A stretch of 64,000 bases of DNA from Parcubacteria group bacterium GW2011_GWA1_56_13 (GTDB lineage: Bacteria; Patescibacteriota; Minisyncoccia; Phycocordibacterales; Phycocordibacteraceae), in the NCBI GenBank assembly GCA_001004905.1, contig LCRY01000002.1:269873-333872 (forward strand). Direction: 5' to 3'. Below the pieces are notes generated by a model that had not been told where the DNA came from, did no database searches, and saw only the letters and a program-made list of their open reading frames with translations. Both the position numbers and the translations under genes were made by a program. Shown here piece by piece: positions 15,888 through 53,084 of this stretch (its first letter is position 1; each line of letters opens with the position of its first letter).

Positions 15888-15903
15888 CCTCTCATTCTAA
15901 CAC

Positions 15904-15940
15904 CCCATTAGAGACGCTCGCGAACTCGCGCTCTAACGGG
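15904..15940. mobile_element. Short palindromic element of the CCCGTTAG family, empty copy
   Basis: CCCATTAGAG...CTCTAACGGG ends. Confidence 0.7.
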
Positions 15941-15951
15941 ACAGGCCGCTT

Positions 15952-23380: not shown

Positions 23381-24408
23381 CCCGCTATGATACCACCGCC
23401 GACGAGTTCGTCATCTGTATAGAAAACGACCGATTGGCCGGGGGCGGGAATCTCGGGAAGTGCGGTATCGCTTACAAAATAATTGTCCTCGCTTATATGA
23501 CCTCTCACGCGCGGCCCGCGATAACGGTACTGCGCTTCTTGTGCGAACGCCGGGGACTGAAACCAATTAGCATCCTTGAAACGTATTGTCTGTTCGGAGG
23601 ACGCTCGTGTTTTCGAGACCTGTATCTCTTTTTTCTCGACGTCCTTGCCGACTACGTACCACGGTCCCTTTTTCGCCAGAGCTTCGGAGGGCAGACTTTC
23701 AGAACTGACTCGTTGGCCGATGGTATATAAAAGCGCGGGATTATCGGTTCCGAGCTCCGCCCGTAAGAATTCTTCGATGGAAACGCTGCCGAGAAAACAC
23801 ACTCCCTGGCTGTCCTTTTTCTCGGCAACCGGCAGACGAAACCGTTTTGCAAGCATCCGCACATCTTCTTTTCTATGGTTCCCTACCGGAAATATCGTCG
23901 CGGCCAGGATATCCCTCGGCACGGCCCAGAGGAAATAGCTCTGGTCTTTCTCGCCGCTGCGATAGTGCCCGGTCGCGATGGTGTCCGCGCCGTGCGCTTT
24001 TGCGAAGCGATAAAATGCCCCACATTTCACTTCCCTATTGCACATAACGTCGGGATTCGGCGTCCGTCCGGCGCGGTACTCCTCGACCAAATAATTAATA
24101 ACGCCTGTTTTGTATTCCGCGCTTGCGTCAAGCGTGAGGAACGGAATGTGGAGTCGCGCCGCGACCCGCATCGCGTCGCGTCGTTCCGCCGCCCAGGTGC
24201 AAGGCATTCCGGGCGGATACCACCCCTTGATGAACACGCCTGTTACTTCCGCGCCTGCTTCTTTCAACAGTGCCGCTGACACGGCAGAATCCACCCCGCC
24301 TGACAGTCCCACGAATATCTTCTTCCCTTGTACGTCCACCCCATTAGAAGTCCGGCTCGCATGCGAGTCGGCAGACATTTCCAATGTCTTGCTTCTAACG
24401 GGGTCCAT
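23377..24408 (-). CDS. mnmA: tRNA 2-thiouridylase MnmA with two in-frame palindromic insertions (start 24408 or 24417)
   Basis: SGGVDS, TPNPDVMCN, ATGHY, KDQSYFL, DSQGVCF, PGQSVVFY. Confidence 0.95.
   Translation of the reverse strand: MDPVRSKTLEMSADSHASRTSNGVDVQGKKIFVGLSGGVDSAVSAALLKEAGAEVTGVFIKGWYPPGMPCTWAAERRDAMRVAARLHIPFLTLDASAEYKTGVINYLVEEYRAGRTPNPDVMCNREVKCGAFYRFAKAHGADTIATGHYRSGEKDQSYFLWAVPRDILAATIFPVGNHRKEDVRMLAKRFRLPVAEKKDSQGVCFLGSVSIEEFLRAELGTDNPALLYTIGQRVSSESLPSEALAKKGPWYVVGKDVEKKEIQVSKTRASSEQTIRFKDANWFQSPAFAQEAQYRYRGPRVRGHISEDNYFVSDTALPEIPAPGQSVVFYTDDELVGGGIIAG
24340..24402. mobile_element. CCCGTTAG-family palindromic element inserted in frame at the mnmA start
   Basis: Minus strand: ATGGAC-CCCGTTAGAAG...CTTCTAATGGG-GTGGAC; two internal hairpins; 63+6 nt keeps the frame. 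Confidence 0.85.
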
Positions 24409-36381: not shown

Positions 36382-36478
36382 GGGAATATTGTACCCCTAA
36401 TACCTCCATCGGCACTTGCGCACCGTGTACAATTTGTGGACCGTAGCGGATTTGAACCGCTGACCTCGTCAATGTTCA

Positions 36479-36588
36479 CCCCGTTAGATATCTCTTCGGT
36501 GGACCTGGGGGGATTTGAACCCCCTACCTCGTCAATGCGAATGACGCGCTCTACCAATTGAGCTACAGGCCCATATTATCTAACGGGG
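36479..36588. mobile_element. CCCGTTAG-family element carrying tRNA-Ala(CGC)
   Basis: Perfect 12-bp IR CCCCGTTAGATA / TATCTAACGGGG. Confidence 0.8.
36500..36572 (-). tRNA. tRNA-Ala(CGC), nested
   Basis: Complete 73-nt cloverleaf, loop TTCGCAT, G3:U70. Confidence 0.93.
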
Positions 36589-36665
36589 CGCGTGACGCGC
36601 TCTACCAGCTGAGCTAACGGCCCAAACATGAACAGAACGGACTGGCGGGCAGGCAGGTAAGGATA

Positions 36666-50417: not shown

Positions 50418-50612
50418 TCAGAGTGCGCTCTTTTCGGGCGCGAGCGGGACGAATATCCACGCGGCGATGTAGGCGATGAGGAACGCGCCGGAGAACATGA
50501 GGCCGAACGTGACGAGCCGGACGATGATGGGGTCAATGTCGAAATATTCGGCAAGCCCTCCCGCCACTCCGCCGATGATTCTGTTGGTCCGCGAACGATA
50601 AAGTTTTTTCAT
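50418..50612 (-). CDS. PspC-domain protein
   Basis: KKLYRSRTNRIIGGVAGGLAEYFDIDP..VRL. Confidence 0.92.
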   Translation of the reverse strand: MKKLYRSRTNRIIGGVAGGLAEYFDIDPIIVRLVTFGLMFSGAFLIAYIAAWIFVPLAPEKSAL

Positions 50613-50905
50613 CCTGTAGTGAAATTTTGGTTTGTTAAATCCTTCGACCTTTCCTTATATAGGAACTCTTTTAATCTCCTCTTTAATAGTCTACCACCTT
50701 GGGTTGTCTTCAAATACCCCTCTCGCCTTTTGGCATCAACGTCATCGAGACAAGCCTCGTAGTAAATAATTTGCCATGGTAGATATCGCTTGGTCGACGG
50801 ATTTAACCCTTGATTATGTTCTGCCAACCTTCTTTTTAGGTCGGTAGTATACCCGACATACAACTCATTATTTTTCTTACTCTGTAGAACGTAGGTATAG
50901 AACAT
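50609..50905 (-). CDS. Stand-alone GIY-YIG nuclease
   Basis: YTYVL...YVGYTTDLKRRLAEHN...YYEA...AKRREGYLK. Confidence 0.92.
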   Translation of the reverse strand: MFYTYVLQSKKNNELYVGYTTDLKRRLAEHNQGLNPSTKRYLPWQIIYYEACLDDVDAKRREGYLKTTQGGRLLKRRLKEFLYKERSKDLTNQNFTTG

Positions 50906-50932
50906 AATCAAACCAAAATTCTACTACGGGAT
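50611..50932. mobile_element. IR-bounded element carrying the GIY-YIG gene, inserted at the pspC start
   Basis: 24-bp IR (21/24) at 50611-50634 and 50909-50932; ATGAA on both sides; AT-rich interior. Confidence 0.8.
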
Positions 50933-50950
50933 TCATGCGTACAGTATACC

Positions 50951-52151: not shown

Positions 52152-53084
52152 TTACTGAGAGAAATCTTTTAGTTTGAAACTGATCTCATATAGAAAGACT
52201 TCGATATTGGGGACCATCCGGAGTGCGTAATCTAGACGTTTGTCGTAAGATCCGGCGACTATAACTGCTTTCACATTATCGTCTCCCTTATTGGCCTTTA
52301 TCCAACCCATATATCGCGTAGCTTGCCCAACCGTGTCATCACTTGTTTGATTCCGCTTTAGTTCAATGACCACATGGCTACCAGTCTTTTTATCCTTTGC
52401 GAGAATATCAATCGGACCTATATCCGTTTTGTATTGCTGGCTCATGAGTTCTCCATCTTCAACAATTAAGTCGAAGCGTTTCCCAAGCTCTGTGTTATCC
52501 CAATTATGAATTAGAAAGTCCTCAAGTTGCTTTTCCATGTAAAAAAGACCTTGGCTCGTCGGGGATTTCTCGTCCCGAATCTTAAGAGAAGCTACTTTGC
52601 CATAATATTCGAGCAACGTCTGAAGATCTGATTCAAGTTCTTTATCTCCAGCTAACTCTCCGCTTTTAGCGTATACGATTGCGAAACTATCACTGTGTTT
52701 CGCAAACTGTAATTGATATACCTTGAAAACAAAAGAATCTCCGTATCGAGGAACCTTCTCTCCAAAGAAAGCTTCAATAGTGTTAGCTTCATTTTGTATT
52801 TCCACTGGCCAAGCTTCTGCGTATGCTTCAGTCTCGCTCACTCCATATGCAAGAATTAGTGTTTGACGATCTTTGTAATAAAGATATACGGGGTAAAAAC
52901 CCTTACTCACTTTCATTTCCGGAGTAGTGAACGCAATCCAAGGAACTCTTGCGGGAGATCCCATACCAAATGACACCTGCATCCGGAAATCGGCTAGAGT
53001 TCTAGGGTAAATAGCTGTTTTAAGTTCCGTGGAATTAGCTTGAACGATAAAGTCTCTAAGGGTTTTGGCAAAGCCGTCCATCAT
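52152..53084 (-). CDS. McrB-N (DUF3578)-like domain fused to a NucS-like PD-(D/E)XK nuclease
   Basis: SFGMGSPARVPWIAF...GFYPVYLY...LAYGVSE; EKQLEDFL...GPIDILAKD...VIELKR...GQATRYMGW. Confidence 0.8.
   Translation of the reverse strand: MMDGFAKTLRDFIVQANSTELKTAIYPRTLADFRMQVSFGMGSPARVPWIAFTTPEMKVSKGFYPVYLYYKDRQTLILAYGVSETEAYAEAWPVEIQNEANTIEAFFGEKVPRYGDSFVFKVYQLQFAKHSDSFAIVYAKSGELAGDKELESDLQTLLEYYGKVASLKIRDEKSPTSQGLFYMEKQLEDFLIHNWDNTELGKRFDLIVEDGELMSQQYKTDIGPIDILAKDKKTGSHVVIELKRNQTSDDTVGQATRYMGWIKANKGDDNVKAVIVAGSYDKRLDYALRMVPNIEVFLYEISFKLKDFSQ

Follow-up and report, generated by a model that had tools for sequence, protein, structure and literature searches.

What is the gene for a small GIY-YIG nuclease, enclosed by inverted repeats, doing between a promoter-like hexamer and the start of pspC? 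The locus lies in a 64,000-nucleotide stretch of DNA (the window, meaning the whole stretch analysed) from a 704-kb genome in 7 contigs (G000). The original prediction read it as a mobile, inverted-repeat-ended element of undescribed type that is moved by its own nuclease. The gene and its enclosing ends are confirmed: the 98-residue product matches the Pfam GIY-YIG family (E 5e-18; PF01541 only, a single domain), and on the minus strand the element begins TCCCGTAGTAGAATTT and ends AAATTTCACTACAGGA, with TGAA on each side. The inverted arms measure 23 bp, the predicted 24 having counted one duplication base per side, and they are imperfect, with 20 of 23 bases matching ungapped, one mismatch near the tip and one bulged A. 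The parts of the locus are as follows.

50612..50931, minus strand: whole element, TCCCG...CAGGA, 320 bp, with sharp alignment borders against the copy in genome G104 and anchored ends
50909..50931, minus strand: left arm of the terminal stem P1, with the bulged A
50612..50634, minus strand: right arm of stem P1; its final A is the A of the pspC ATG
50932..50935, minus strand: target-site duplication TGAA, left copy
50608..50611, minus strand: duplication TGAA, right copy, overlapping the TGA stop of the nuclease and the TG of the pspC ATG
50609..50905, minus strand: GIY-YIG nuclease gene, 98 aa, ATG at 50905 and stop at 50609-50611
50812..50909, minus strand: internal helix P2, pairing 50899-50909 (which spans the nuclease ATG) with 50812-50822 (E-H-N codons)
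50634..50807, minus strand: internal helix P3, pairing 50793-50807 with 50634-50648
50877..50936, minus strand: 19-aa peptide, out of frame, from the original host ATG (left copy)
50943..50948, minus strand: TATACT, a putative -10-like hexamer 6 nt upstream of the original ATG, leaderless-type
50418..50612, minus strand: pspC-domain gene, 64 aa, the host gene with a rebuilt start codon

TATACT does stand 6 nt before the left ATG, a second ATG starts pspC, and TGAA is duplicated on both sides, all as predicted. The pspC ATG is assembled from the last A of the element and the duplicated TG, and the nuclease stop overlaps it (ATGA). The proposed coupling of nuclease and pspC through this overlap applies here but does not extend to the subfamily, in which most nuclease genes stop 15–28 nt before the right end. 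Nor does the nuclease use the host start codon here: the 19-residue peptide begins at the left ATG, which lies in another frame, and helix P2 is predicted to bury the ATG of the nuclease itself. Hexamers of -10 type similar to TATACT lie upstream of several pspC homologues; a sigma-70 scan found no full promoter, and Rfam returned only tRNAs, both in the window and at four other GIY-YIG loci. The GC content of the element is 0.38 compared with 0.57 for the contig.

Comparison with relatives bore out the claim of mobility. In the congener G104, a copy whose protein is 88% identical and whose ends are the same lies at the start of a different gene; this gene encodes an unrelated membrane protein, which we take to be TspO-like, and has no match in G000. 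DNA alignment of the two copies breaks exactly at their ends, G104's own pspC is free of the element, and gene-less miniatures with the same exact ends are also found. Among the eight closest pspC orthologues (75–83% identical), an empty-site comparison that had been proposed as a check, seven lack the element and one has a right-end remnant; a strictly syntenic empty allele was not found among the relatives compared, because their gene upstream of pspC differs from that of G000. The remnant (L136, at pspC of G226) comprises the right end and the 3′ strand of P3, as of a decayed or imprecisely lost element. For a gene-less miniature at the start of mnmA, 18 of 19 fetched relatives are empty and the other has a TTAG-type end at the same place. 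At the level of sequence, these comparisons demonstrate a mobile element with defined ends, a target duplication and a rebuilt start codon. The contigs of four DNA sequencing runs contained no joint removing the whole element, the joints listed most likely being miniatures of other organisms, and the query run against viral contigs yielded no phage vehicle, only four weak matches of 17–27 residues. Tandem arrays of elements a few bases apart occur at five loci (L467, L074, L096, L097 and L437), which suggests insertion next to existing copies.

The family is real and widespread. We assembled 110 homologue loci (30, including that of the window, plus 80); the nearest named homologues come mostly from Patescibacteria. 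An inverted-repeat score of at least 20 was reached at 82 of the 110 loci but at 22 of 313 control windows, and ends could be anchored at 81, in agreement with the expectation that stand-alone homologues of the nuclease would be flanked by inverted repeats. An exact 4-bp duplication accompanies 36 of the 81 anchored elements, compared with 0–2 at shifted registers and 6.9% of cross-pairs; of the 45 elements that lack one, 8 have 3 bp and 4 have 5 bp. The duplicated sequence conforms to YNNR in 30 of the 36, and in 38 of 39 four-mers among the metagenome matches listed, where at least 71 paired elements included 39 with a 4-bp, 10 with a 5-bp and 5 with a 3-bp duplication. Two end types depart from this pattern: ACAC ends have 3-bp duplications (5/5) and GTGAG ends none (0/7).

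Insertions with a duplication mostly coincide with gene starts. At the right junction of 49 elements whose duplication is 3 bp or longer, an ORF of 50 aa or more begins on the same strand in 39 and on the opposite strand in none (control, 5%). These 39 host genes are mostly unrelated, with only four homologous pairs among them. Target sites among the matches listed (n = 49, overlapping classes, without a background control) fell at start codons (24), -35-like boxes (10), a -10-like box (1) or none of these (16), so that sorting by start codon or promoter box is only suggestive. Nine elements (L171, L199, L203, L232, L233, L180, L213, L251 and L255) are inserted in TTGAC- or TATAAT-like boxes that the duplication rebuilds, again without a background control.

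Nine residues of the nuclease are invariant in 86 homologues (Y5, Y16, G18, R26, H30, E50, R61, E62 and K66), the catalytic positions are conserved, and dN/dS lies between 0.03 and 0.15 in 10 of 14 pairs, indicating purifying selection; L059, L060 and L068, in which indels break the ungapped comparison, and the saturated L067 were left out. No NCBIfam model scored above its cut-off. The predicted structure (pLDDT 92) has its closest folds in Slx1, HIGLE and UPF0213 (Foldseek E 2e-3 to 9e-3, prob 1.0), with PDB sequence matches 1ywl and 1zg2. Slx1, HIGLE and UPF0213 share the conserved catalytic residues, but are host repair enzymes or uncharacterised proteins, and we know of none that is encoded by a mobile element. 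The nuclease is predicted to form a dimer: a homodimer model joined through strand 47–54 scored 0.80, compared with 0.00 for the best of three controls, with 100% agreement of contacts and pLDDT of at least 86. Of 30 solved pairs, 20 attain the score mark, as does 1 of 23 single chains; the score may reflect likeness to solved Slx1-like structures. Such a dimer would suit a symmetric staggered cut.

The element strand folds beyond chance (z = -6.7 as DNA and -7.7 as RNA against shuffles). In 44 full-length elements with ends of the GTAG type, the type found at pspC, a three-way junction is conserved: P1 joins the ends, P2 pairs the nuclease ATG with the E-H-N codons, and P3 forms the remaining arm. 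Across these elements 95% of cells are paired, compared with 88% after shuffling and 30–49% in slid controls, and 23 of 43 pairs show two-sided changes, a covariation reached in 0 of 500 shuffles, although kin may beat shuffles and the structure was derived from the same sequences. Third codon positions within P2 are fixed at E29 (100%) and H30 (98%), compared with about 50–64% at E50, E62, Y48 and D57. Outside the GTAG clade, single-sequence folds gave inconsistent P2-type pairing. P2 probably limits translation of the nuclease.

Gene-less forms fold in a related manner: 26 of 32 miniatures of 50–100 nt contain two inner hairpins and are T-shaped, compared with 36% of shuffled interiors. Of their loops, 44 of 60 are triloops, chiefly GAA, TTC, GTA, TAC, AAA and GGA; GAA, GTA, GGA, AAA or their complements number 51, against a shuffle mean of 4.6, and both polarities are present. 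GNA mini-hairpins are described as far more stable in DNA than in RNA (PMC13037366). Departures from pairing on the coding strand favour A-C over G-T in P1 (24 vs 8) and P3 (9 vs 2). Triloops in both polarities, together with P1 and P3 mismatches free of G-U bias on the coding strand, point to single-stranded DNA as the folded form. The bulge in P1 lies in the left arm in 27 and in the right arm in 11 of 39 elements. In flipped elements the start codon is still rebuilt at the 3′ side of the gene, so orientation follows the gene and not the asymmetry of the ends.

We consider it likely, although well short of certain, that the small Slx1-like GIY-YIG nuclease is the element's own mobilising enzyme and acts on the element folded as branched single-stranded DNA. 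With slightly better than even confidence, we further propose a class of DNA transposon of about 300 bp in which a dimer of an 85–98-aa GIY-YIG protein would serve as transposase, the three-way single-stranded DNA would be both substrate and expression lock, and insertion would be steered to start codons or promoter boxes that the duplication rebuilds; at that length, few autonomous elements would be smaller. While its DNA is transiently single-stranded, the element would fold so that its two ends meet in stem P1, and a clade-specific nuclease would recognise P1 and nick at its base, by analogy with SsnA, which nicks beside its hairpin, and Slx1, which cuts at branch points. The least certain steps are the following: the dimer would cleave the two strands of a symmetric YNNR target 4 nt apart; from there, host polymerase and ligase would copy the element in, which would give the duplication; the element would persist mainly where its terminal A or G and the duplication rebuild an ATG, a GTG or a promoter box, owing either to selection or to open DNA near transcription starts; and P2 would bury the nuclease ATG, probably keeping a toxic enzyme rare. 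Rebuilding of this kind would explain why elements survive at start codons and promoter-like boxes. Because GIY-YIG enzymes are DNA hydrolases for which we know of no strand-transfer activity, joining would have to be borrowed from the host.

Terminal inverted repeats with a symmetric 4-bp YNNR duplication are the classic signature of a DDE transposase, and the family resembles classical DDE insertion sequences in having both inverted ends and a characteristic duplication (mode 4 bp). The element could therefore be of the MITE or transporter type: some unrelated transposase of the DDE or HUH kind, or an enzyme of the host, would move it in trans, the GIY-YIG gene being a passenger of long standing. 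We regard this as unlikely. A DNA-only metagenome scan with the left end gave at least 120 loci, of which at least 53 are gene-less miniatures of 37–146 bp, at least 16 contain the nuclease or part of it, and at least 2 are other paired segments (237 and 366 bp); of the other loci listed, 25 lack a partner end, 22 are too short for a decision and 2 are duplicates. No transposase lay between the ends in any of the loci listed, including the at least 71 paired elements, and no transposase domain was found in 58 ORFs from 27 unpaired or long loci among these matches, in 19 of which the motif lies inside a long ORF. No DDE transposase was thus found between the ends among the paired elements and ORFs listed. 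The gene-less forms have the properties of MITEs, being short, non-coding, dispersed (up to 23 ends per genome), inverted at their ends and flanked by a duplication; however, the only longer form with these ends that recurs among the matches listed carries GIY-YIG in place of the DDE transposase of a parent insertion sequence, and the nuclease is the only recurrent cargo and is under purifying selection.

G000 does have candidates for action in trans, five RAYT-like Y1 genes (L007–L011) elsewhere on the same contig (C2), so the remark that no transposase was recognised in the window cannot be extended to the genome. It also has one tyrosine recombinase, and no match to DDE_Tnp_1, rve, IS1595 or RVT_1, the four families searched. 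Each Y1 gene is bracketed by its own short palindromes and none of the five has ends of the pspC-element type, the outcome that the prediction required of any HUH or RAYT gene. Three of five miniature-rich genomes lack a Y1 match; the remaining two have just one miniature in the neighbourhood of a Y1 gene, about 700 nt away.

End sequence also tracks nuclease clade, which argues against a mover unrelated to the nuclease. In a tree built by a quick method from 112 proteins (88 columns, many forks open), end types cluster, requiring 20 changes compared with 64.7 after shuffling (all groups); a single branch separates the TTAG ends from all others, and a group of 41 contains 36 of the 38 GTAG rows. 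We surveyed 300 genomes of the order: 25 contain short GTAG miniatures, 13 encode the cognate nuclease and 7 have both. The predicted correlation of element and nuclease is therefore present, with the cognate nuclease in 7 of 25 miniature-bearing and 6 of 275 other genomes (Fisher p 1.5e-5, kinship ignored), but incomplete, as 18 of the 25 lack it, an observation that favours mobilisation in trans; one single-contig genome with 23 left ends has neither a cognate nuclease nor a Y1 match. These counts leave out 4 of 17 genomes above the score cut-off, whose nucleases have other ends or none; with these kept, the values are 8/25 and 9/275 (p 1.1e-5). If a trans-acting transposase did move the element, the family would be a MITE variant.

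Three small elements in the window had been predicted to belong with the pspC element.

24339..24403, minus strand: gene-less TTAG miniature of 65 bp with a T-shaped fold, lying in frame (69 nt) at the start of mnmA; its duplication is TGGA
15903..15941, no strand assigned: gene-less TTAG miniature, 39 bp, no duplication seen
36479..36588, minus strand: TTAG ends around tRNA-Ala(CGC) (36498-36572), no duplication seen

All three exist, at the places given (15904, 24340 and 36479), but their ends are of the CCCGTTAGA type and not the GTAG type, and a duplication is present at mnmA only, where it is TGGA (4 bp). The idea of a cargo-carrying family has the tRNA as its one case, and there no duplication is seen. 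G000 has seven TTAG miniatures, and the pspC copy is probably not the partner of those in the window, because they belong to the TTAG-end clade, whose nuclease is not among the genome's five small GIY-YIG genes. The tRNA at window 36439-36625 is the genome's only ARAGORN-called tRNA-Ala(CGC), and the TTAG ends around it split a tRNA-like sequence at the anticodon loop. A solo CCCGTTAGA end with no near partner lies at about 57657 on the minus strand.

The closest described system is Ssn (cd10448). Chenal et al. 2025 report that SsnA cuts single-stranded DNA beside its cognate hairpin and accepts two annealed half-stems, and liken NTS-ssnA-NTS to an insertion sequence, a comparison that is speculation there (PMC11893778, main text). 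As at pspC, a single-domain GIY-YIG gene of about 95 aa is tied to co-evolving hairpin repeats (PMC11893778, main text), so the claim of an undescribed system needs qualifying: in the literature searched, mostly outside subscription journals, the family is undescribed, and no GIY-YIG element that combines terminal inverted repeats with target duplications is reported, but a GIY-YIG-plus-hairpin cassette from a probably different clade has been proposed as IS-like (PMC11893778, main text). By analogy, the pspC element plausibly works like Ssn. By the tests run, it is not an Ssn member: the SRM motif is found in 0 of 110 loci, the SRM count in G000 is 4 compared with 2–6 in shuffles, and the proxies for Ssn, two NTS-linked proteins, sit on a long separate branch, with 35% identity over 66 aa to an NTS-linked homologue. 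Unlike Ssn as set out in that main text, the pspC element has ends that pair together around the gene, a target duplication and start-codon rebuilding; the main text mentions neither 'duplication' nor Patescibacteria, and describes SsnA as monomeric (PMC11893778).

A second alternative, which we think improbable, is that the nuclease acts in an SsnA- or homing-like manner, cutting single-stranded DNA beside a hairpin during transformation or replication, with spread by error-prone repair and recombination and no dedicated cycle of excision and insertion. The activity of SsnA itself, duplication lengths that range from 3 to 5 bp, and the existence of tandem arrays and solo ends would all fit. 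Against it stand the absence of SRM and the distant branch of the two NTS-linked nucleases, together with insertion at many non-homologous genes in a fixed register, for which homing cannot account; homing endonucleases return to the same site in homologous alleles, and among the 39 hosts here there are no more than four homologous pairs.

Penelope-like retroelements and GIY-YIG homing endonucleases use a GIY-YIG domain to cut a target for mobility; unlike them, the pspC family has no intron, no DNA-binding extension and many unrelated sites, and the reverse transcriptase of a Penelope-like retroelement is absent from the pspC element. An RNA structure and RNA intermediate, with a trans-supplied reverse transcriptase for which the nuclease nicks the target, is more improbable still: the strong RNA fold (z -7.7), the invariable co-orientation of nuclease and host genes (39 vs 0), a related element type inside helices of RNase P RNA and a lean towards G-U among coding-strand departures in P2 (8 G-T vs 4 A-C) would suit it, but the genome has no RVT_1 match, the triloops are of DNA type and of both polarities, A-C exceeds G-T on the coding strand of P1 and P3, and the ends are precise at both sides.

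Mobilisation of the element by its own nuclease would also set the family apart from other repeat systems. GTAG-tagged REPs, RAYTs and TIRtrons are covered by Di Nocera et al. 2013, where each system has a tyrosine transposase; the word 'GIY' is absent from the main text (PMC3733652). To judge by that text, REPtrons, or RAYTs with their REPINs, and TIRtrons share with the pspC family a small gene between repeats, more numerous gene-less hairpins, single-stranded-DNA-type structure and the GTAG word, but in the pspC family a GIY-YIG protein replaces the HUH/Y1 protein between the repeats and there are 4-bp duplications. The REP hairpin has an unpaired GTAG tag at its foot, whereas in the pspC element GTAG is paired with CTAC inside P1. 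Insertion sequences and the MITEs covered there (Correia/NEMIS, RUP and ERIC; PMC3733652, main text) likewise have terminal inverted repeats, a short duplication and, as in the pspC family with its 37–146-bp gene-less forms, a long autonomous-like form beside gene-less ones; the long form of the pspC family differs in encoding GIY-YIG and not DDE, in its length of about 280–320 bp and in the covarying three-way junction throughout.

Were the nuclease the mobilising enzyme, a plain hydrolytic GIY-YIG protein would be an added route of transposition, and the hairpin repeats and N-terminal in-frame inserts in these Patescibacteria genomes would have a testable origin. To our knowledge, DNA transposition chemistry is of DDE, HUH, serine, tyrosine, DEDD or Cas1 type. 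The same reading, if true, would allow the IS-like hypothesis for Ssn to be tested concretely. In each clade a nuclease of about 90 aa goes with its own end of about 20 bp, a possible toolkit of very small sequence- and structure-specific nucleases.

Further elements were seen in G000. A second GIY-YIG element, with ACAC ends (L003, C2:353909-354214), has a 3-bp ATG duplication at the start of another gene, and a gene-less ACAC miniature with the same duplication lies at C2:114664-114807. A GTGAG element with a GIY-YIG gene of 84-aa frame (L004, C2:397889-398169) is inserted in the RNase P RNA gene, presumably at the place of that RNA's own helix P3; a second GTGAG miniature lies further into the same gene, of which Rfam RF00010 matches the 3′ part only, below cut-off. 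Another GTGAG miniature (C5:12966-13062) separates two flanking sequences that we take to be 16S rRNA. TTAG miniatures with 4-bp duplications at C3:55021-55082 and C7:7012-7076 are in frame at a GFTLxE motif, presumably of the prepilin type. A separate family of hairpins of about 41 bp (CCCCGTAGCC...GTACTGGGG), with a GCGAAGC-type core and no duplication, occurs at C1:28716, C1:78388, C2:8306, C2:94087, C2:432373 and C4:20993. Elsewhere in the window, 52152-53084 on the minus strand encodes a protein that joins an MrcB-like domain, at its N terminus, to a nuclease domain of NucS/PD-(D/E)XK type; it adjoins an unannotated 258-aa gene and an NYN-domain gene, a neighbourhood that is possibly a small defence island.
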